Assembly (NCBI GenBank): GCA_039588275.1
Contig: JBDHAC010000005.1
Location: 34,309-98,308, forward strand
DNA: 64,000 nucleotides
Direction: 5' to 3'
Origin: Gemmatimonadota bacterium
GTDB taxonomy: Bacteria > Gemmatimonadota > Gemmatimonadetes > Palauibacterales > Palauibacteraceae
Positions 19,612 through 28,252 of the stretch are shown one piece after another (position 1 is the stretch's first letter; each line of letters starts with the position of its first letter). The notes under the pieces were generated by a model. It was not told where the DNA came from, ran no database searches, and saw nothing but the letters and a program-made list of their open reading frames with translations. A program made the translations under genes and the position numbers.

Positions 19612-19634
19612 GCCTCTTCAGGTTAGGCTTCTTC
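19603..19634. repeat. 15-bp tandem duplication spanning two convergent stop codons
   Basis: TCAGGTTAGGCCTCT / TCAGGTTAGGCTTCT. Confidence 0.75.
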
Positions 19635-20435
19635 GAAGGCGAAGGCTCCGTAGCCCACTACCCGGTCCTTCGGTCCAGCCGTATCACCCGAGTTCCGCAA
19701 GTCCAGAGTCCGCACCCTGAGCCCTCGCTCGGCGGCAAGACCCAGCAGGCCCTGGACGGCTACTGCACCGCAAGCTTGGGTCGGGCCGATGTCCTGCGGG
19801 CGCAGCGCCTCGATCGCGCTTGCCGTGGCTCGGTCCTCCCGGCGGGCGGAATCGTAGTCCAGATAGTGACTCAGATCCGAGCTCACGACGATCGAAGTCT
19901 CGGGCCCGCCCCACAGGAGACGTAGCGCCGTTTCGACATCAGCCGGCTCCGCGTCTCCGACCACGAGCGGGACGAGACGGAACGCCGAGAAGCTGCGCTG
20001 CAGGAAGGGGAGATGGACCTCCAGCGAGTGCTCGGGCTCGTGCGCCTCGTCGCGCTCCCGCACGCAGGGCAGGGAGAGAGCTCGTCCCACGGCCTCACGG
20101 TCCACCTCCACCAGCCCGAGCGGGGTCTCGAACGCGTCCGCGCCCGATGCGGCGAGCCCGCGGAAGGGCACCCGGTGGGCGGGGCCGACGAGGATGACCC
20201 GCTCGACGTCCTCTCCTGCCTCCTCGAGCCAGCGATACGCGGTCGCCGCGATCGGTCCCGAGTAGATGTATCCGGCGTGGGGTGCTACCACCGCTTTGTG
20301 CCACCCCGGCGCTTTTCCGGGACCGGTCGTCGCGTGCGGGACGGCTGCATCGAGGAGCGACGTCACCGTCTCACCCAGTGCATCTCGATCTGCGGGATAG
20401 AAGTAACCCGCAACGGCCGGGCGGCGAATCTTCAT
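19623..20435 (-). CDS. amrB: AmmeMemoRadiSam system protein B (MEMO1 family)
   Basis: RRPAVAGYFYP, PHAGYIYSG, EHSLEV, SSDLSHY, NSGDT...VVGYG. Confidence 0.95.
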   Translation of the reverse strand: MKIRRPAVAGYFYPADRDALGETVTSLLDAAVPHATTGPGKAPGWHKAVVAPHAGYIYSGPIAATAYRWLEEAGEDVERVILVGPAHRVPFRGLAASGADAFETPLGLVEVDREAVGRALSLPCVRERDEAHEPEHSLEVHLPFLQRSFSAFRLVPLVVGDAEPADVETALRLLWGGPETSIVVSSDLSHYLDYDSARREDRATASAIEALRPQDIGPTQACGAVAVQGLLGLAAERGLRVRTLDLRNSGDTAGPKDRVVGYGAFAFEEA

Positions 20436-20454
20436 CGTTCAATCCCTTGCATCC

Positions 20455-21552
20455 TCAGGCGGCGTAGGTCGCGAGCCGCACCGGCAAGCGCCTCGCGCCC
20501 CATCCGCCTGGCTTTGGCTCGAACAGGCCCGGGCATCTACTGCCGCAGCGGCTACACAGCCCGTCGCCCGTGAGATTCCATTCGGACAGCACGTACCAAT
20601 CGCGCCCGATGAGGCGCTCCCCGCACCCGTGGCAGTACGTGCTCTGCGTCTCGAGGTCGTGCACGTTCCCGGTGTAGACGTGCCGCAGCCCGTTCGCGAG
20701 GCCGATCCGCCGCGCTCGACGCAGCGTGTCGGGAGGTGTCCGCGGTCGGTCTCGCATCTTCCAGTCGGGGTGGAACGCGGTGAAGTGGAGCGGGACATCC
20801 GGTCCCAGGTGCTCGGCGATCCACGCGGTTTCCCCCTCGATCTCGCCGTCCGAATCGTTCTCCCCCGGGATGAGAAGCGTCGTGATCTCGAACCACACGT
20901 CAGTCTCGTGCCGCAGGTGGCGAAGCGTGTCAAGGACGGGCTCGAGCTCGCCCCCGCACACCTTCCGGTAGAACGTGTCGCTGAACGCCTTCAGGTCCAC
21001 GTTGGCGGCATCCATGTGCCGGTAGAACTCCGCGCGCGGCCCGGGAGACTGGTACCCGGCCGTGACGGCGACCGAGCGGATACCACGCTCGCGGCATGCC
21101 CGGGCTACATCGATCGCGTACTCGTGGAAGATGATTGGGTCGTTGTAGGTAAACGCCACGCTGCGACACCCGAGACGCTCGGCGGCCCGAGCGATGGTCT
21201 CGGGCGACGCCGCATCGGCCAGCGTGTCCATCTCGCGCGACTTCGAGATGTCCCAGTTCTGACAGTACCGGCAAGCGAGGAGGCATCCGGCCGTCCCGAA
21301 CGAGAGCACCGGTGTGCCCGGCAGAAAGTGGTTGAGCGGCTTCTTCTCGATCGGGTCCACGCAATAGCCGCTGGAGCGGCCGTACGTGGTCAGGACGATT
21401 TGATCGCCGGCGTTGGCGCGGACGAAGCAGAACCCGCGCTGTCCGTCGCGCAGCCGGCACTCGCGGGGGCAAATGTCGCACTGGACGCGTCCGTCTTCCA
21501 GCCGGTGCCAGTGCCGCGTCGGGTGTCCCTCCAGCGCGTCGGCGACTTTCAT
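20455..21552 (-). CDS. amrS: AmmeMemoRadiSam system radical SAM enzyme
   Basis: CDICPREC, DPIEKKPLNHF, GCLLACRYCQNWDIS, AFTYNDP, YTGNVHD. Confidence 0.95.
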   Translation of the reverse strand: MKVADALEGHPTRHWHRLEDGRVQCDICPRECRLRDGQRGFCFVRANAGDQIVLTTYGRSSGYCVDPIEKKPLNHFLPGTPVLSFGTAGCLLACRYCQNWDISKSREMDTLADAASPETIARAAERLGCRSVAFTYNDPIIFHEYAIDVARACRERGIRSVAVTAGYQSPGPRAEFYRHMDAANVDLKAFSDTFYRKVCGGELEPVLDTLRHLRHETDVWFEITTLLIPGENDSDGEIEGETAWIAEHLGPDVPLHFTAFHPDWKMRDRPRTPPDTLRRARRIGLANGLRHVYTGNVHDLETQSTYCHGCGERLIGRDWYVLSEWNLTGDGLCSRCGSRCPGLFEPKPGGWGARRLPVRLATYAA

Positions 21553-22520
21553 GCGTCCGCAGCCCGGTTGAGGACCCTGAAGAGCCGGAGGTGTGACTGC
21601 CGCTCATCCAGCCTCCGGAGACCGAGGTCGCCCGCGATCTCCCGCGCCTGACGGAACTCGGCGGCGGAGAGACGCCGGCACAGCTCCGGGTACCGGTCCT
21701 CGCTCACCGCGCCGGCCGGCGAGTACTGGTCCATGAGGTTCACGTACGTCCCCGGTCCCAATTCCCGGGCGATCCACTCCAGAATCGCCCGCGTCTCGTC
21801 TAGCTCGCCGGGCATGACGAGGTGCCGCAGGAGTACGCCTCGCCGCGCGAGCCCGTCGGCATCGATGACGAGATCCCCGACCTGGCGGTGCATCTCCGCG
21901 ATCGCGGCACGTGCCGCGTCCGGATAATCCTCGGCCTTCAGGTATTTCCGGCTCTTGTCCGCGCTCCAGTACTTGAAGTCCGGCATGTAGATGTCGACGA
22001 CCCCGTCCATGAAGGCCAGGCTTTCGAGGGCGTCGTACGCGCTCGTGTTGTAGACGATGGGAAGCTCGAGCCCGTCCTCCACCGCCTTCGCGATTGCCTC
22101 GAGCACCTGAGGTACGACGTGCTCGGGGGTCACGAAGTTGACGTTATGGCACCCGAGCCTTTGTAGCTCCAACATCATGGCCGCGATCTCGTGCGCCTTG
22201 GCCTCGCGATCGGATCGGCCGGGCTTGATCGCCTGGCTGATGTCCCAGTTCTGACAGAAGGCACACCGCAGATTGCAGTGCGAGAAGAAGATGGTGCCCG
22301 ACCCGTTCCACCCCCGCAGGCAATCCTCTTCGCCCAAGTGCGGGAAGCAACTGCTCACGACCGCGTGGCGACCGGTCTTGCATGCCGCCCACTTGTCCTC
22401 GAGCCTGTTCACACCGCAATCGCGCGGGCACGCGCGGCAATCCGCCAGGCTGGCGACGGCGCGCTCGGCCCGCAGCTGAAGCTCGCGGCGAGATAGGCTC
22501 AGGTACGCCGCACGAACCAC
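21549..22520 (-). CDS. PflX-like radical SAM protein
   Basis: CRACPRDCGVNR, HLGEE, GSGTIFF.HCNLRCAFCQN, DIYMPDFKY, LLRHLVMPG; ATGA-type overlap with amrS. Confidence 0.9.
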   Translation of the reverse strand: MVRAAYLSLSRRELQLRAERAVASLADCRACPRDCGVNRLEDKWAACKTGRHAVVSSCFPHLGEEDCLRGWNGSGTIFFSHCNLRCAFCQNWDISQAIKPGRSDREAKAHEIAAMMLELQRLGCHNVNFVTPEHVVPQVLEAIAKAVEDGLELPIVYNTSAYDALESLAFMDGVVDIYMPDFKYWSADKSRKYLKAEDYPDAARAAIAEMHRQVGDLVIDADGLARRGVLLRHLVMPGELDETRAILEWIARELGPGTYVNLMDQYSPAGAVSEDRYPELCRRLSAAEFRQAREIAGDLGLRRLDERQSHLRLFRVLNRAADA

Positions 22521-22566
22521 GGGGCCTCCGATCCTGCCATATTGACCTTCCCCGAAATGTACGCGC

Positions 22567-22602
22567 GGACCGGGGCTTTCGCCCCAGCCTCGTGTCTCGG
22601 AT
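22567..22602 (+). promoter_or_regulatory. Conserved upstream motif, copy A (also at 25738-25772)
   Basis: GGACCGGGGCTTTCGCCCCAGCCTCGTGTCTCGGAT matches copy B at 28 of 36 aligned positions; contains GGGGC-TTTC-GCCCC hairpin. Confidence 0.45.
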
Positions 22603-22679
22603 GCGTCAAGATGTAAGATTCAGCTCATTCGTGGCATCCATACGCTGGTGAGGGATGGTGTGGGTGCCGACTCGAACCG

Positions 22680-23228
22680 GTGGGAGTGTCGGCAGGCAAT
22701 GGCGTGAAACCCGAAGCTACCAGGCCCGAGGTCCTGACGCGGGCGGGTCGCGGTGACCGCGACGCGCTGACGCAACTGTATCAAGAGTACGCGGAGGGGG
22801 TGTACGAGGCTGCCTTTCACCTCACGGAATCCGCCGCCGACGCTCAGGATGTCGTGCAGGAGGTGTTCTTGGGGCTGCCGGAGGCACTGCGGACGTACGA
22901 GGGACGCGGCAGCTTCGGTTCCTGGCTGCGGACGGTGACGGTGCGGACGGCGTTGATCAAGCTTCGCCAGCGTCGGCGGCTGAGGGAGATATCGCTTGGC
23001 TTCAATCGGACCGGACTATCGCTCGCGCCCGCGGGCCATATCGATCGTATCGAGCTGGAGAGGGCGCTGAGCGCGCTCCCAGAGAAGCTGAGGATCGTGG
23101 TCGTTCTCAAGGAGATTCAGGGTTTCTCGCACAGGGAGATCGCCGGCCTGCTGGGGATTCGACCCTCGGCGTCGGCCGCGCGGCTTTCGAGGGCGAGAGA
23201 GCAGCTCCGGGAGCACCTCAACACCTGA
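22680..23228 (+). CDS. ECF RNA polymerase sigma factor
   Basis: GDRDA...DAQDVVQEVF, F.SWL (region 2); LPEKLR...GFSHREIA (region 4); start could be GTG 22704. Confidence 0.93.
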   Translation: MGVSAGNGVKPEATRPEVLTRAGRGDRDALTQLYQEYAEGVYEAAFHLTESAADAQDVVQEVFLGLPEALRTYEGRGSFGSWLRTVTVRTALIKLRQRRRLREISLGFNRTGLSLAPAGHIDRIELERALSALPEKLRIVVVLKEIQGFSHREIAGLLGIRPSASAARLSRAREQLREHLNT

Positions 23229-23229
23229 G

Positions 23230-23427
23230 ATGGTGCTTCGTCGCTGGCACCCGGACCTGGAGACGCTTCACGATCTCGTCGAGGGAGCGGTCGCGGACGG
23301 CCTCCGAGGACGCGTCGAGCGTCACGTGGAGAGCTGCGGCGAGTGCCAGCGCGAAGTGGGGATGAGACAGGATGCCAGGACAGGGCTCGAGAATATCGCG
23401 CGTCTGCGCGCGAGGTTGAGAGGATAG
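23230..23427 (+). CDS. Small stand-alone zf-HC2 (anti-sigma zinc finger) protein
   Basis: HP...L...ERHVESCGECQREV = HxxxCxxC; starts 1 nt after the sigma stop. Confidence 0.75.
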   Translation: MVLRRWHPDLETLHDLVEGAVADGLRGRVERHVESCGECQREVGMRQDARTGLENIARLRARLRG

Positions 23428-23432
23428 CGGGG

Positions 23433-25577
23433 ATGCGGGTACGTAGACATCCGAGCCACCAAACGCTCAGCTGCTACATCGACGAAGAGCTGACGGAAGC
23501 TCGACACAGCGAGGTGGATGAACACCTCGAGGGCTGCCTGAGATGTCGGCGTGAAGTCGACTTCATGGCCGAGGTGCAGCGCGGACTGCGTGAGATCGCG
23601 AAGCCGCGCCCGCCCCGGGACGTCCTGGAGCACATCCTCGAGCGCCGAGAAGCGGGCGAACGGATCATCCTGCCGACCGCGTGGGCGAGCCCGCGGAGAC
23701 TCAAGCCCGCGGTGCCCGCGGTCACAGCGGTCGCCGCGGCCCTGTTCGCGGCCGCGGTGGGGCTCATGCTCCTCGACAGCCGCGAGGCCGCTGCCGGCGC
23801 CAGCGGCATGGAGTTCTCGCCCTCCAACCTGGCTTACACCCACGAAATCGAGATCGAGTACCGAACTGCGGGTGCACTGGCGGGTGAGCCGAAGCTCCGG
23901 GTGCGCGGTCGCTACCTGACGGCCGATGACGACATCCGGTTTGGCGCGGGCGGGTCCTTCGTGTCCGCCGATCTGTGGCCTGGTGAGGACGGGACCTTTC
24001 AAGGAACCCTCCGTCTGCCCGGTTCCGCGGTGTACGCTCAGTTCGCGGTGGAGGACGAAGACGGCGAGTACGTGGATCACAACGGTTACCTGTCGTGGGA
24101 CCTCGTGGCCGAGTACGAGGATGGTCGACCCAAGTTCGAGGCGTTGTGGCAGCGCGCCAGAGCCTTCCAGGAGAGAGACCGGCAAGAGGCGTACGAGTCG
24201 ATCAAGCGGCTGACAGAGCTGTACCCGGACCGCGTGGAAGGGTGGTCGGCGCGGTACGGGTACGAGAGGGCCGCGATCGCGTCCGTGCTCACGCGACCGC
24301 TCGAGAGCCGGCACCGCTCGAAGTTCGCCGGGTTCCTCGAGCAGGCGTCGAGAGGTGCGTTGTCCGCCACGGAGCTGGGTGCCCTCGTCGACTACGCCCG
24401 CCGTTTGGGCGACCGCCCTGCGGTCGAGATGGTGGCCAGCGAGCTGCAGCGGCTTTACCCGAGCGATCCGATCGCCGTTGGCGAGCGCGTCGTGCGTCTG
24501 CGGGAATCGCTGCGGGGCGAACCCCAGGCCATGCTCCGCGAGCTCGAGCGCGAGTGGGAGCGTGTGGGGCCGACGCAGCCCCTGCTCGTTGAAGACGCAT
24601 ATGAGGCGGCCACGAAGACCCGTGATCCCGCGGCGATCCGGCAGTGGACCGACCGCCTCGTGGCGCTAGAACCCAGCCGAACGCCGATCATTGCTCGCGA
24701 CCTCGAGGGAATCCCTTCCGTGCGCCCGTACGTGGCCGAACTGATCAGGGTCGAGCTCAGGCGGCTCGAAGAGGCCCCGGAGATCAGTCGCCCGCTGCAC
24801 CTCGGCGTGAGCGAGTACCGTGATGAGAACCGGCGCCTGCGCCACGACCTCTTGGCGAGGCTGGGTCGGATGCTGGTAGCCGAAGGAAGGGTGGAGGCCG
24901 GAGTCGACACATTGCTGCTGGCGGCCGAGACCGGCTGGGATCCCGAGCTGTTTGCTGAGCTCGGCGCGCTATCCGCATCCCGCGGTGACGTGACGACGGC
25001 ACGCCGCTACTCTGCGTTGGCGGCCGTCGATCCGCTAATAGAGCATACAGAGCTGGAAGCTCTGCATGCGCGGGGCGACAGACTTACCACGGAGAGTTCT
25101 TGGGAGGAGGCGCTCGAGGCAGCAAGAGAGGAGCAAAAGGATCGACTGTACGAGGGCGACATCAATCGGAGGTTGCCCGACGGTATCGTTCTCAGAGACC
25201 AAGGCAGAGCCGTACGACAATTCGAATCCTTGCTCGGAGAGGGGGCCACAATCGTCCTTCTGTGGTCACGGTGGGAGCGGAGGACCATCGAGGTCTCCAG
25301 GAAGTTGGGGGAGTATCGTGACCGGCTCGCTCCGGCGGGGGTGGAGATCCTCGCGATCACCCGGGACCCGGATGCTGAGGGAGCGTTGAACGGCTGGAGG
25401 GAGTTAAACGTTGACCTTCCGGCTTACCTAGACCCCCGGGGGCGGGCGACGGCCGCCATGGGTTCTTTCGCGTTCCCGGATCTGTTGGTGCTGGACGCTG
25501 GTGGGCGGGTCCGATTCGCGGACAGAGACGCCGACGGAGCGGCGCGCGCCGCTCTGACATTGGCCGGAGCAAGGTAG
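23433..25577 (+). CDS. Large anti-sigma-like protein: zf-HC2, TM, extracytoplasmic beta and TPR-like region, C-terminal redoxin-like domain lacking CxxC
   Basis: HLEGCLRC; TM VAAALFAAAVGLMLL; helical repeats; C-terminal IVLLWSRWERRT...ILAITRD...YLDP...FPDLLVLDAGGRVRF. Confidence 0.8.
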   Translation: MRVRRHPSHQTLSCYIDEELTEARHSEVDEHLEGCLRCRREVDFMAEVQRGLREIAKPRPPRDVLEHILERREAGERIILPTAWASPRRLKPAVPAVTAVAAALFAAAVGLMLLDSREAAAGASGMEFSPSNLAYTHEIEIEYRTAGALAGEPKLRVRGRYLTADDDIRFGAGGSFVSADLWPGEDGTFQGTLRLPGSAVYAQFAVEDEDGEYVDHNGYLSWDLVAEYEDGRPKFEALWQRARAFQERDRQEAYESIKRLTELYPDRVEGWSARYGYERAAIASVLTRPLESRHRSKFAGFLEQASRGALSATELGALVDYARRLGDRPAVEMVASELQRLYPSDPIAVGERVVRLRESLRGEPQAMLRELEREWERVGPTQPLLVEDAYEAATKTRDPAAIRQWTDRLVALEPSRTPIIARDLEGIPSVRPYVAELIRVELRRLEEAPEISRPLHLGVSEYRDENRRLRHDLLARLGRMLVAEGRVEAGVDTLLLAAETGWDPELFAELGALSASRGDVTTARRYSALAAVDPLIEHTELEALHARGDRLTTESSWEEALEAAREEQKDRLYEGDINRRLPDGIVLRDQGRAVRQFESLLGEGATIVLLWSRWERRTIEVSRKLGEYRDRLAPAGVEILAITRDPDAEGALNGWRELNVDLPAYLDPRGRATAAMGSFAFPDLLVLDAGGRVRFADRDADGAARAALTLAGAR

Positions 25578-25737
25578 CCGGCGGCGGCTCGATCCGGCCG
25601 CCATAGGCTCGAAGAGCAAACCACCCAGGTACGCAATAAGAAGGGGCGTGCTCACCGGTCGGGTGGCCTTGGGCGCACCCCCCTCCGCTTTTCCTGGCAG
25701 TTCGTAAAACAGTAGACATCACAGGCCATCCGCACCC

Positions 25738-25772
25738 GGACAGGGGCTTCGCCCTGGCCTCGGGTGCGGGAT
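25738..25772 (+). promoter_or_regulatory. Conserved upstream motif, copy B
   Basis: GGACAGGGGCTTCGCCCTGGCCTCGGGTGCGGGAT, 27 nt upstream of the small peptide gene. Confidence 0.45.
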
Positions 25773-25799
25773 CTTCACGCGCTTCCAAGAGGAGGAATC

Positions 25800-26000
25800 A
25801 TGGATTCCAAGCGCATCTCCCGATTCACGAGTGCGACGCTGCTGGCCGCGGGCTTCTCGCTGATTCCCGTCACGATCTCCAGTTCCGGCGAGCTGGAGGA
25901 AGCCGCCGTGTGCGCGAATCAGGGACAGTGCACCTTCGAACTGGGGTCGTGGTGCGACGACAACTTCGACTACTACGATAAGCCAGTGGTCGTCGACTGA
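25800..26000 (+). CDS. 66-aa exported Cys-containing peptide
   Basis: Strong RBS AGAGGAGG; MDSKRISRFTSATLLAAGFSLIPV signal-like; core EEAAVCANQGQCTFELGSWCDDNFDYYDK. Confidence 0.8.
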   Translation: MDSKRISRFTSATLLAAGFSLIPVTISSSGELEEAAVCANQGQCTFELGSWCDDNFDYYDKPVVVD

Positions 26001-26050
26001 TCCGAGCGCGAGACGATTCCAAGAAGCTCGAGACGAAAGGACTCGAAGCC

Positions 26051-27175
26051 ATGTTCAAGCGATTCGGGAAAGCGCTCGCGCTCCTGGTGACCCCCTTTAT
26101 CGTCTTCCTGGGCTCGACGGGCCTCGGCTCGTGGGCCATCGCGTCGGACGAACGCTCCCCTTCGAGCGAAGAGGTGTCGATCCTGGACCTCCAGGGCGCG
26201 GTGCATCACCAAGGTGAGCACCTCGGGATGCCCGTAGGGTTGGCGGTGTTCGGCAACACGCTGGTCGCGATCGACCGCTTCGCGGAGCGCAGCGTCCACG
26301 TCGTCGATCTCGGCACGGGGAAGCTCCGCGGATCGGTCGGACGGGAAGGGGAAGGGCCGGGCGAGTTCAGGGCTGTGTACTCGATCGATCGCGTGGCGAA
26401 CAGCGATGAACTGTGGGTGTTCGATGCCGGAACGCAGCGTCTGACGCGCCTGGACCTCGCGGCGCTCGACTCCGACGGCGGCTGGGCGAAGGAGTTCGTC
26501 AGCTTGCGGGGGAGTGCACGCGTGATGAACCCGGTCCGAACAGCTGAGGACAACGTCCTGGCCGTCGGCCTCTTCACCGAGGGTCGGTTCGGCGTCTTCA
26601 ATCAGAACGGTGAGCAAGTCGACGCGCTCGGTAGCCTGCCTGAGTGGTCAGAGCCCATCCCGCCGGGAGTGCTCCAACACGCGTTTACCGGGACGATCAA
26701 GGCCGACCCGGACCGTCAGCGGTTCGCCGTCGGAGCACGCCACGCCGGCTTGCTGGAGATCTTCGACGCGTCCGGTCGGCGGCTCGCCCGGGCCGAGGTC
26801 CCCGTGGAGTTCGAGCCGCGATTCACCGTCAACGTGCGTGATGACCGCATCTCGATGGGGAGCGGTGAGGACCTGAGGTTCGGCTACGTCGACGTGGCTA
26901 CGACGCACGACCGTGTCTACGGCCTCTTCTCGGGGCGGGTGCGCGGCGAGTACCCGAAGAGCGCCAACTTTGCGCGCGAAATCCATGTGTTCGATTGGAC
27001 CGGTCGGCTAGAGTCGATTATCCACCTCGACGCGGACATAATCGCGATCGCGGTGGACGAATGGGACGATAACCTGTACGCGATCGGTCACGACCCGCTC
27101 CCAGCGATCCTGAAGTACGAGCTGCGGGACGCGGGCGGATCTCGGGCCGTGGGCTCCATCGCGATGCGTGACTGA
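26051..27175 (+). CDS. Six-bladed beta-propeller protein (BF3164/TolB-like family)
   Basis: Signal peptide; GREGEGPGEF signature, YVDVATT...VYGLFSG, IHVFDWTG. Confidence 0.85.
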   Translation: MFKRFGKALALLVTPFIVFLGSTGLGSWAIASDERSPSSEEVSILDLQGAVHHQGEHLGMPVGLAVFGNTLVAIDRFAERSVHVVDLGTGKLRGSVGREGEGPGEFRAVYSIDRVANSDELWVFDAGTQRLTRLDLAALDSDGGWAKEFVSLRGSARVMNPVRTAEDNVLAVGLFTEGRFGVFNQNGEQVDALGSLPEWSEPIPPGVLQHAFTGTIKADPDRQRFAVGARHAGLLEIFDASGRRLARAEVPVEFEPRFTVNVRDDRISMGSGEDLRFGYVDVATTHDRVYGLFSGRVRGEYPKSANFAREIHVFDWTGRLESIIHLDADIIAIAVDEWDDNLYAIGHDPLPAILKYELRDAGGSRAVGSIAMRD

Positions 27176-27241
27176 CGGGCTGACGCGGCTTGGCCGCGGC
27201 CGGCGTGCGACGCCGATTGAAAACCCGCTCCCGAGGCGCGA

Positions 27242-28252
27242 TCAGGAGTTCGCGGGTTCGGTGGTTACTGTAACCGAGCCCGCCTCGGAATCGGCGACGG
27301 CGGAAGCTCGCGACACCGCGGGGCGGTGTCGGGCGGCTCGCCTCTGCGACCGCTGAACGAGTATCACCGCAATAGTGATTATCGCCATCGCCACGAACGT
27401 GCGCTGGGTGAGGGGCTCCGAAGCCAACGCCCAACCCAGGACGACGGCCACCACAGGGTTCACGTACGCGTACGTACCAACCAACGCCGGTCGCACGGCG
27501 CGGAGTAGCCATATGTAGGCCGAGAACGCCACGAGCGAGCCGAACACGATGAGATAGGCCAGCGCGGCGACCGATTTCAGGGACACGGCCGCCAGCTCGA
27601 TCTGCCCGAACTCGCCCCGAAAACCCCCCGTCAACAAGAGCAGGCCGCCGCCGCAGAGCATCGTCAACGACGTGGCGTACAGCTGCGGGCTCGGGAAGGT
27701 CGCGCTTCGGCTGTAAATGGACCCGGCCGCCCAGGACACAGAGGCGATCAGCACCGCCACCGCGCCGAGCACGAACGAGCGTGGGTCGGCGCCCACGTTG
27801 CGCAGCACCTCGGGCGACGGCGCCAGGAGCAGAGCCACACCGCCCAGCCCGAGCCCCAGGCCCGCGATCTCGCCTCCGCTGGGCCGCTCTCCGTCGGGCC
27901 CGAGCCACGCCATCAACACCAGCCACAGCGGCGCGGTCGCGACGAGGAGCGCCGCCAGACCGGATGGCACGAATTGCTCTGCCCAGCTCAGGAGCCCGTT
28001 TCCACCCAAGAGCATGAGACCGCCGGATATCGTGGCGGCCTTCCAATGCCCCCCGGCCGGCATCTCGCTTCCCCGCAACCGGAACCAGGTGAACAGGACC
28101 CCGCCAGCCACGAGGAATCGAATCCCGGCCATCGAGAACGGTGGGATCGTCTCGATCGCGAAACGGATCGACAGGTAGGTCGATCCCCAGATCACGTAGA
28201 CCAGCCCGAGAGCCAGCAACACGCGTGCGGGTGACGCGTCCCGGGGACTCAT
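27242..28252 (-). CDS. EamA/DMT family transporter (YedA-like)
   Basis: VYVIWGSTY, GIRFLVAG, PSGLAALL, YLIVFGS, YAYVNPVVAV. Confidence 0.92.
   Translation of the reverse strand: MSPRDASPARVLLALGLVYVIWGSTYLSIRFAIETIPPFSMAGIRFLVAGGVLFTWFRLRGSEMPAGGHWKAATISGGLMLLGGNGLLSWAEQFVPSGLAALLVATAPLWLVLMAWLGPDGERPSGGEIAGLGLGLGGVALLLAPSPEVLRNVGADPRSFVLGAVAVLIASVSWAAGSIYSRSATFPSPQLYATSLTMLCGGGLLLLTGGFRGEFGQIELAAVSLKSVAALAYLIVFGSLVAFSAYIWLLRAVRPALVGTYAYVNPVVAVVLGWALASEPLTQRTFVAMAIITIAVILVQRSQRRAARHRPAVSRASAVADSEAGSVTVTTEPANS

Follow-up and report, generated by a model that had tools for sequence, protein, structure and literature searches.

A conserved cassette of Gemmatimonadota combining an ECF sigma factor, an anti-sigma factor with a cysteine-free thioredoxin fold, a cysteine peptide and a six-bladed propeller

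Background

In the RpoE-RseA-RseB system of E. coli, an autoregulated operon for a sigma factor of the extracytoplasmic function (ECF) type also encodes an anti-sigma factor and a periplasmic accessory protein. Here we describe a locus with comparable elements in a Gemmatimonadota bacterium (assembly GCA_039588275.1): the genes for an ECF sigma factor, a membrane-spanning anti-sigma factor, a small peptide with conserved cysteines and a six-bladed propeller. It lies in a stretch of 64,000 nucleotides, referred to below as the window (contig JBDHAC010000005.1, positions 34,309 to 98,308 of the forward strand), and represents a cassette conserved in Gemmatimonadota, in which the anti-sigma factor may monitor the co-encoded peptide. 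RseA is unlike this anti-sigma factor in that its periplasmic part is small and unstructured, and it has no zinc finger, thioredoxin fold or peptide gene.

The DdvS-DdvA pair of Myxococcus xanthus resembles the locus in the order of an ECF sigma factor and a zinc-binding single-pass anti-sigma factor, and in a large periplasmic TPR region that ends in an enzyme fold with an incomplete active site. In the part of PMC11506125 consulted here, the signal of DdvA is thought to be a protein, and release by RseP cleavage is shown for truncated DdvA. According to the same part, however, the C-terminal domain of DdvA is a caspase-like CHAT domain, and what it controls is CBASS/CRISPR. The anti-sigma factor considered here lacks the CHAT domain of the DdvA type; it ends in a thioredoxin fold, has an added beta-sandwich and shares its operon with the peptide and the propeller.

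A parallel with Bacteroidota was drawn in a preliminary description of this DNA, made from the sequence, and it is real. In the Bacteroidota arrays of NVEALA (PF14055) and PF15869/DUF5128 genes, a small leader-bearing Cys peptide likewise directly precedes a six-bladed propeller, and a thioredoxin-like protein and a regulator bound to the membrane are encoded close by. An unannotated array of this kind was found in Phocaeicola massiliensis (OY726023.1; L100:4420-18765), where seven NVEALA genes alternate with propellers; it also holds DUF1573/thioredoxin-like genes and a membrane protein with Trans_reg_C. The two peptide families, however, show no sequence homology, and six of the seven NVEALA cores contain an even number of cysteines; in the arrays the thioredoxin-like partner is a separate CxxC protein, and the regulator carries Trans_reg_C instead of an ECF/anti-sigma pair.

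The consulted part of the ECF classification (PMC7826278) describes no such cassette, and the words "thioredoxin", "propeller" and "Gemmatimonad" do not occur in its main text. The nearest entry there is ECF284, with a putative anti-sigma factor at position +1 that has some homology to AhpC/TSA (a thioredoxin fold); unlike our locus, it is given there as found in Actinobacteria only, with usually two transmembrane helices, the promoter GAATCCTTT/CTCTT and no conserved context beyond the anti-sigma factor. NHLRC2/SOQ1 (PMC6107167) also combine a six-bladed NHL propeller with a thioredoxin-like fold that lacks classical reductase activity, and have a presumed ligand cleft; the part of that source used here places the cleft of NHLRC2 between the two domains and reports no reductase activity in an insulin assay. 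There both domains are in one chain, the CCINC motif is kept, and neither a sigma factor nor a peptide is involved, whereas here the thioredoxin fold and the propeller are encoded by separate genes and the likeness comes from predicted folds. A literature search, with most subscription journals outside its coverage, found no paper naming or explaining cassettes of peptide, propeller and redoxin. The cassette is real and conserved, and as a variant of ECF/class I anti-sigma signalling it is apparently unpublished.

Results

The preliminary description proposed a module of five co-oriented genes. All five open reading frames (ORFs) are found on the plus strand as described (Table 1), but the conserved unit in Gemmatimonadota has four genes: the ECF sigma factor, the zinc-finger anti-sigma factor, the three-Cys peptide and the PF15869 propeller. 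The anti-sigma family was detected at E<=1e-40 in 78 of the 401 genomes of the class and in 53 of the 94 genomes within the family. Neighbourhoods were counted at loci from part of these matches. The linkage set comprises 61 fused full-length anti-sigma factors from 51 genomes; its cassette rows include kin and are not independent, and one large genus (g16) contributes many of them. The sigma gene lies upstream of the anti-sigma gene in 60/60 fused copies with a flank, and the peptide and propeller genes lie directly downstream in 46 of the 57 with at least 1 kb of flank. The genes around the cassette vary from genus to genus. This is the co-occurrence in other genomes on which the preliminary description had made its proposal depend.

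PF15869 occurs in 22 of 61 related genomes, mostly once and within the cassette. Where one genome has paralogous cassettes, each bears its own, different peptide (G156, G106, G280, G114, G289). The linkage of the peptide persists even where it is not the sense output of the promoter: its gene is divergent in G057, with no motif in that direction, and antisense in G286, G277 and G320, the last two of which have no cassette-type propeller at E<=1e-30. In a mirror-tree comparison of 39 cassettes, the leader was taken as a control, and its correlation with the partners was about equal to that of the core.

Several further arrangements were observed. At L214:1125-4260, L215 and L216 (the loci of G286, G277 and G320), the antisense peptide gene lies between the promoter and the sigma gene, and a second promoter copy behind the anti-sigma gene is aimed back into it; L218 has a similar antisense peptide without the two promoters. 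Many cassettes of g16 add, after the propeller, a fifth gene of 99 amino acids (aa) with no Pfam match (L199:5517-5816, L045:6336-6635 and others), and many have a distinct five-Cys type of peptide, with two or three cassettes in some genomes. Broken frames were seen in the propeller of G001 (L032:7321-8405) and in the anti-sigma factors of G002, G028, G323 and G086 (L003, L043, L224, L222); either assembly error or decay could be responsible.

The anti-sigma factor has a zinc-finger domain (H31, C35, C38), a transmembrane helix at about 94-114 and an ectodomain of three parts: a beta-sandwich (about 125-225), a TPR-like solenoid (about 235-573) and a TlpA/ResA-type thioredoxin fold (about 586-712). 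Pfam and NCBIfam returned zf-HC2 and weak TPR and Redoxin matches. The three zinc-finger residues are conserved at 90% or more over 61 rows, and with its N-terminal HxxxCxxC, single transmembrane helix and sigma-adjacent gene (60/60) the protein has the features of a class I zinc-binding anti-sigma factor. The AlphaFold2 model of the ectodomain is compact (pLDDT 89.8, pTM 0.87; 34-row alignment). Its thioredoxin domain matches ResA/TlpA proteins, with E 3e-10 to ResA in a hidden Markov model (HMM) comparison and, in Foldseek, a target TM-score of about 0.8 at a root-mean-square deviation (rmsd) of 2.2-2.5 A; the solenoid matches TPR proteins, and the N-terminus matches the zinc domains of DdvA and ChrR. 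No solved protein spans the whole anti-sigma factor in the Foldseek and HMM searches, and a pattern scan of genome contigs with P0003 gave a single match of 50 residues. By analogy with known families, the zinc-finger domain would sequester the sigma factor, and release would probably need proteolysis.

The label "redoxin", first given to the C-terminal part, has to be qualified: the fold of a TlpA/ResA oxidoreductase is present, but its active-site CxxC is missing, and the ectodomain contains no Cys anywhere. The thioredoxin-motif Cys is found in 0 of the 46 peptide-linked anti-sigma factors and is kept in 3 of 58 full fused copies, for which no neighbouring peptide was detected. All eight stand-alone homologs with a signal-like N-terminus keep the first motif Cys (six as CxxS, two as CxxC), and both CxxC forms lie in BlaI-BlaR1(M56)-redoxin-propeller operons, a second transmembrane relay. 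At loci L228 and L229 (G153 and G350), BlaR1 (M56), joined in L229 by BlaI, shares an operon with propeller-like genes and with a stand-alone homolog of the ectodomain that has CxxC.

The peptide precursor has a basic/hydrophobic N-terminus, an invariant Pro23 and a core with three invariant cysteines (C38, C44, C52), which is acidic in this genome. From their hydrophobic N-termini, both the peptide and the propeller are predicted to be exported. No relevant Pfam match was obtained for the peptide; its homologs (n=68) have no Pfam annotation, and the named ones come from Gemmatimonadota. The cores share about 30% mean identity around the fixed cysteines. The number of core cysteines is odd (3 or 5) in 57/57 aligned rows and in 65/65 parsed homologs, the two sets overlapping; this count omits a frameshifted peptide (L224) as well as P0072, and two of 67 homologs could not be parsed. 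The few peptides seen near Cys-bearing homologs of the anti-sigma factor have even numbers (6 in G050; 8 and 8 in G137). In G137 (L227:9527-10000) the two peptides, with eight Cys each, lie in tandem at a distance of about 3 kb from a stand-alone CxxS homolog; in G050 (L047:6474-6719) a Cys-keeping homolog is followed, after about 1.2 kb, by the peptide with six Cys and a DUF5128 propeller.

The layout is NVEALA-like, with a leader, a Cys-rich variable core and a position directly before a propeller gene. Membership of the peptide in the NVEALA family itself is not borne out: PF14055 matched 0/13 peptide members versus 7/7 Phocaeicola controls, and profile comparison gave a probability of 3.6%. 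An NVEALA cluster is listed second in the ESM Atlas (0.80), which we take as a weak lead only. Were the peptide a tiny lipoprotein, its odd number of cysteines would also be explained; the hydrophobic stretch and the first Cys are separated by 10-15 mostly polar residues, a spacing unlike the usual lipobox. In Bufferin-type clusters of ribosomally synthesized and modified peptides, DUF692 oxidase and DoxX genes stand beside the Cys precursor; no such genes accompany the cassette in the ORF lists of the window and the compared loci, searched with four family profiles.

The propeller scores 75.2 bits against PF15869 (TolB_like), for which the cut-off is 29.2. Its model (pLDDT 86.2) has a six-bladed NHL-type fold, and the best fold matches are NHL domains (Z 25.3, rmsd 3.5, 267 aligned); NHLRC2 and SOQ1 (PDB 6gc1, 7djk) match with Z 20-21. 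It is about 24% identical to Bacteroidota "BF3164 family lipoproteins". The N-terminus is hydrophobic, and since the protein (P0005) contains no Cys, this copy has no lipobox; some relatives do have an N-terminal Cys. A role as an amidating lyase (PAL; fold similarity Z 23.1, rmsd 4.1, 279 aligned) was considered and rejected. PAL is an NHL propeller with several conserved metal-binding His, and here only one His (H83, in 39 of 47) is conserved at 70% or more. Because a conserved set of metal-binding His is missing, the role of the propeller is more likely binding than catalysis.

A bipartite motif, TGTAAGATT-N13/14-GCATCY, precedes the sigma gene; the site in the window scores 30.2 bits with a matrix built without this genus. 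The same matrix finds 17 sites of at least 18.8 bits in the genome. The top 17 lie 32-368 nt before a co-oriented ORF, and 0 of 21 examined sites are inside called genes. The full matrix gives 14 sites above 20 bits in this genome (G000) versus 0-3 in five local shuffles. Within 700 nt upstream, the motif accompanies 42 of 63 cassette sigma genes, training sites included, and among the 16 ECF-like genes of G000 it stands before the cassette sigma gene only. The exact pattern is found in 43 of the 401 class genomes versus 5 for the reversed control, and the anti-sigma family is present in 16 of the 18 class genomes in which at least two exact sites occur.

The sigma factor itself (Sigma70_r2 6.5e-16, r4_2 7e-15, TIGR02937 above cut-off) consists of the sigma2 and sigma4 domains only, in about 180 aa, as is characteristic of group 4 (ECF) factors, and on computational grounds it also has the conserved bipartite promoter before its own gene. 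As an ECF-type promoter is conserved ahead of the sigma gene, the autoregulation that formed part of the loop first proposed is supported, and the sigma factor likely activates its own predicted promoter. For the peptide gene, a promoter of its own of this type was looked for and rejected: a similar sequence at about 25700 had a negative score, and no site occurred in the 19 regions examined upstream of peptide genes.

About 15 other genes in this genome are likely under the same predicted promoter, including an efflux operon of the resistance-nodulation-division (RND)-TolC type. This operon (adaptor, TolC, double AcrB) is the sole target common across genera. With 30 of 53 matches examined, the RND adaptor gene has the motif in front of it in 5 of 18 cassette genomes and in 0 of 12 others; the operon itself is present in 53 of 61 relatives, regardless of the cassette, and in G022 and G005 a DUF5128 propeller comes after it. 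Further targets here are a caspase-domain locus, a TonB C-terminal protein, two molybdopterin-enzyme subunits, an endonuclease/phosphatase, a laminin-G protein and several unnamed exported proteins.

Two back-to-back promoter copies were observed on contig C1 of G000 (L152:15283-19998, L153:1-2216), with a caspase-domain protein, a helix-turn-helix protein and three unnamed coiled-coil or lipoprotein-like genes on one side; similar-looking genes stand behind the motif in G022 (L139). The caspase-domain locus is possibly an undescribed conflict system. In genus g15, 8 of 11 genomes have one site without the cassette, and the three tested have a close sigma factor with no adjacent anti-sigma gene. 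At L263-L265 of this genus the close sigma relative lies upstream of a ferritin-like gene (labelled from its sequence), and in G030 the single motif site precedes a vWA-domain gene.

Table 1. Coordinates of the cassette and associated features in the window
Feature	Position	Strand	Basis or remark
Promoter motif	22612..22639	+	-35 TGTAAGATT, 13-nt spacer, -10 GCATCC; predicted autoregulatory
ECF sigma factor, sigma2+sigma4 only	22680..23228	+	GTG start; alternative start 22704 possible
Accessory zf-HC2 ORF, 65 aa, HxxxCxxC	23230..23427	+	PF13490 8e-5
Single-pass anti-sigma factor, 714 aa	23433..25577	+	PF13490, hydropathy, AlphaFold2, Foldseek, HMM
Predicted stem-loop and strong ribosome-binding site (RBS) ahead of peptide gene	25730..25795	+	Folding energy; AGGAGG 25790-25795
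Cys-peptide precursor, 66 aa	25800..26000	+	Alignments; unnamed family
Six-bladed NHL-type propeller, 374 aa	26051..27175	+	PF15869 7e-21
AmmeMemoRadiSam-type cluster	19623-22520	minus	Ordinary cluster, divergent from cassette; TIGR04337 above cut-off

The fifth ORF of the preliminary description, the 65-aa zinc finger, does not belong to the core. In the other two genomes of the genus (G001 and G002), it is intact in the former and largely deleted in the latter, at the same position, and it was not seen there in the remaining loci compared; one further separate zinc-finger ORF occurs in G133. Over 54 aa it shares 31% identity with the anti-sigma N-terminus, and it is, judged by its sequence, an accessory soluble zinc-finger domain of anti-sigma type. 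That it is a frameshifted fragment of the anti-sigma gene was rejected, the latter having a complete zinc finger of its own.

The start first assigned to the module, 22567, is intergenic and no gene begins there, although the region so delimited covers the promoter motif. The flanks are genes of the opposite strand, as had been claimed: upstream the radical SAM gene of the AmmeMemoRadiSam cluster and downstream a YedA/EamA exporter. Among the loci listed, this cluster adjoins the cassette only within this genus. In one pairwise comparison with G001, all five genes are under purifying selection (dN/dS 0.08 for the sigma gene, 0.25 for the 65-aa ORF, 0.21 for the anti-sigma gene, 0.17 for the peptide and 0.16 for the first 229 codons of the propeller). 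In this genome (86% complete), each of the genes for the anti-sigma factor, the peptide and the propeller is single-copy, and the GC content of the cassette is that of its surroundings. Rfam gave no match within 22400-27400, and PADLOC none for the four core proteins.

The stem-loop before the peptide gene has a folding energy of -35.6 kcal/mol (z -2.1), and a similar hairpin is predicted in G001 (z -2.8), which is modest support. In both genomes a long hairpin and a small one over the RBS (25730-25800) precede the peptide gene; an mRNA stabiliser or translational control is possible.

Discussion

We are inclined, with a probability of about 0.4, to read the cassette as a conserved four-gene ECF operon whose own promoter is likely activated by its sigma factor, in which the dead thioredoxin/TPR ectodomain monitors the co-encoded Cys peptide and the propeller is a predicted carrier or co-receptor. 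The zinc-finger domain would hold the sigma factor at the membrane. The exported peptide would form one or two disulfides, with one Cys left unpaired. The ectodomain may descend from a Cys-bearing redoxin of the peptide-propeller cassettes, client binding having been kept and the chemistry lost. The amount of the peptide, or its folding or redox state, would alter the ectodomain and free the sigma factor, probably via regulated intramembrane proteolysis as for DdvA. Once free, the sigma factor would transcribe its own operon, the operon for RND-TolC efflux and the genes of a lineage-specific set, most of whose products are exported.

A number of observations weigh against this proposal. Eleven of the 57 fused anti-sigma genes have no directly downstream pair: G057 has both the peptide and the propeller divergently upstream, G286, G277 and G320 have the peptide antisense, upstream of the sigma gene, and seven have no peptide of their own nearby. 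The Cys is missing as well in five of these seven, namely in G133, G388 and G086 and in the first of the tandem copies of G174 and of G079; an adjacent peptide is therefore not required for an ectodomain without Cys. G024 has the peptide and propeller without the sigma pair, the propellers of G025, G008 and G009 have no detected peptide, and in G140 and G354 the motif occurs three times each, with no anti-sigma gene and no close sigma factor found. In the FastTree phylogeny of the anti-sigma family (G086 left out; deep nodes unresolved), most of the Cys-keeping forms belong to a single clade (support 0.887), and since they cluster, the loss of Cys and the linkage to the peptide may represent one historical event. 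Across the family, the residues of the former thioredoxin active site show no conservation, although a fixed binding pocket would lead one to expect it. The targets of the predicted regulon are mostly lineage-specific and name no signal. Finally, co-transcription accounts for the linkage equally well if the peptide and the propeller are outputs.

The last point leads to the strongest of the other explanations, namely that the anti-sigma factor senses an unrelated envelope cue and that the peptide and the propeller are effectors of the regulon, for example a thiol or metal buffer of the periplasm and the carrier of this buffer, for which the co-regulated RND-TolC pump might serve as exporter. 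We consider this quite possible, if somewhat doubtful. Both genes are behind the operon promoter and have no promoter of the same type of their own; three cysteines suit the binding of soft metals, as is generally known; fused anti-sigma factors without a peptide exist; and the efflux operon is co-regulated in the five of 18 genomes, with the DUF5128 propeller after it in G022 and G005. Output alone, however, does not sit easily with a peptide that stays linked in divergent or antisense layouts and is retained in its own type by each paralogous cassette, and the cassette contains neither a modifying enzyme nor a metal transporter.

In the strongest form of the preliminary proposal, the peptide would instead be a diffusible pheromone that exits via RND-TolC, accumulates and is read by neighbouring cells through the propeller and the anti-sigma factor, in a density-dependent positive feedback. 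Cores that vary around fixed cysteines, the strong RBS, the autoregulatory promoter, the co-regulated efflux operon and targets rich in exported proteins, together with the caspase-domain locus, would all be consistent with such a role. We nevertheless find it improbable: the cassette has no dedicated peptidase or peptide exporter and no importer to carry a peptide of about 30-40 residues across the outer membrane, and the RND operon is found in relatives (53/61) whether or not they have the cassette.

A toxin-immunity pair under ECF control, with the peptide as an antibacterial disulfide peptide and the propeller as its immunity protein, is the least probable explanation: the one-to-one alternation in the Phocaeicola array and the movement of the pair as a unit (G057, G024) would fit it, but the core here is acidic and not cationic, the cassette is single-copy and spread over the whole family instead of being arrayed, the peptides of G277 and G320 have no detected cassette propeller, and PADLOC does not recognise the four core proteins.

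Returning to the proposal that the ectodomain monitors the peptide, it is tempting to go one step further and suppose a split redox switch, in which the unpaired Cys of the peptide docks in the emptied thioredoxin site, the propeller clamps it as in the cleft of NHLRC2, and the peptide thus supplies the lost thiol in trans. The parity of the cysteines is pertinent here: odd beside Cys-less anti-sigma factors (57/57 rows), even in the few peptides seen near Cys-bearing homologs and in 6/7 NVEALA cores. We regard this specific form of the mechanism as unlikely.

Conclusions

Cassettes of peptide, propeller and redoxin are common in Bacteroidota and Gemmatimonadota. The one described here is connected to a sigma factor for which a promoter is predicted, and a single reporter gene in a laboratory host could therefore show what the peptide does. 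Should the ectodomain sense the peptide, it would be an enzyme-derived peptide receptor on an anti-sigma factor; otherwise the locus would still represent an anti-sigma architecture not described before, together with its predicted regulon, in a phylum that has been little studied. The split redox switch, if true, would constitute a new class of peptide receptor and give a first function to the widespread peptide-propeller-redoxin cassettes.

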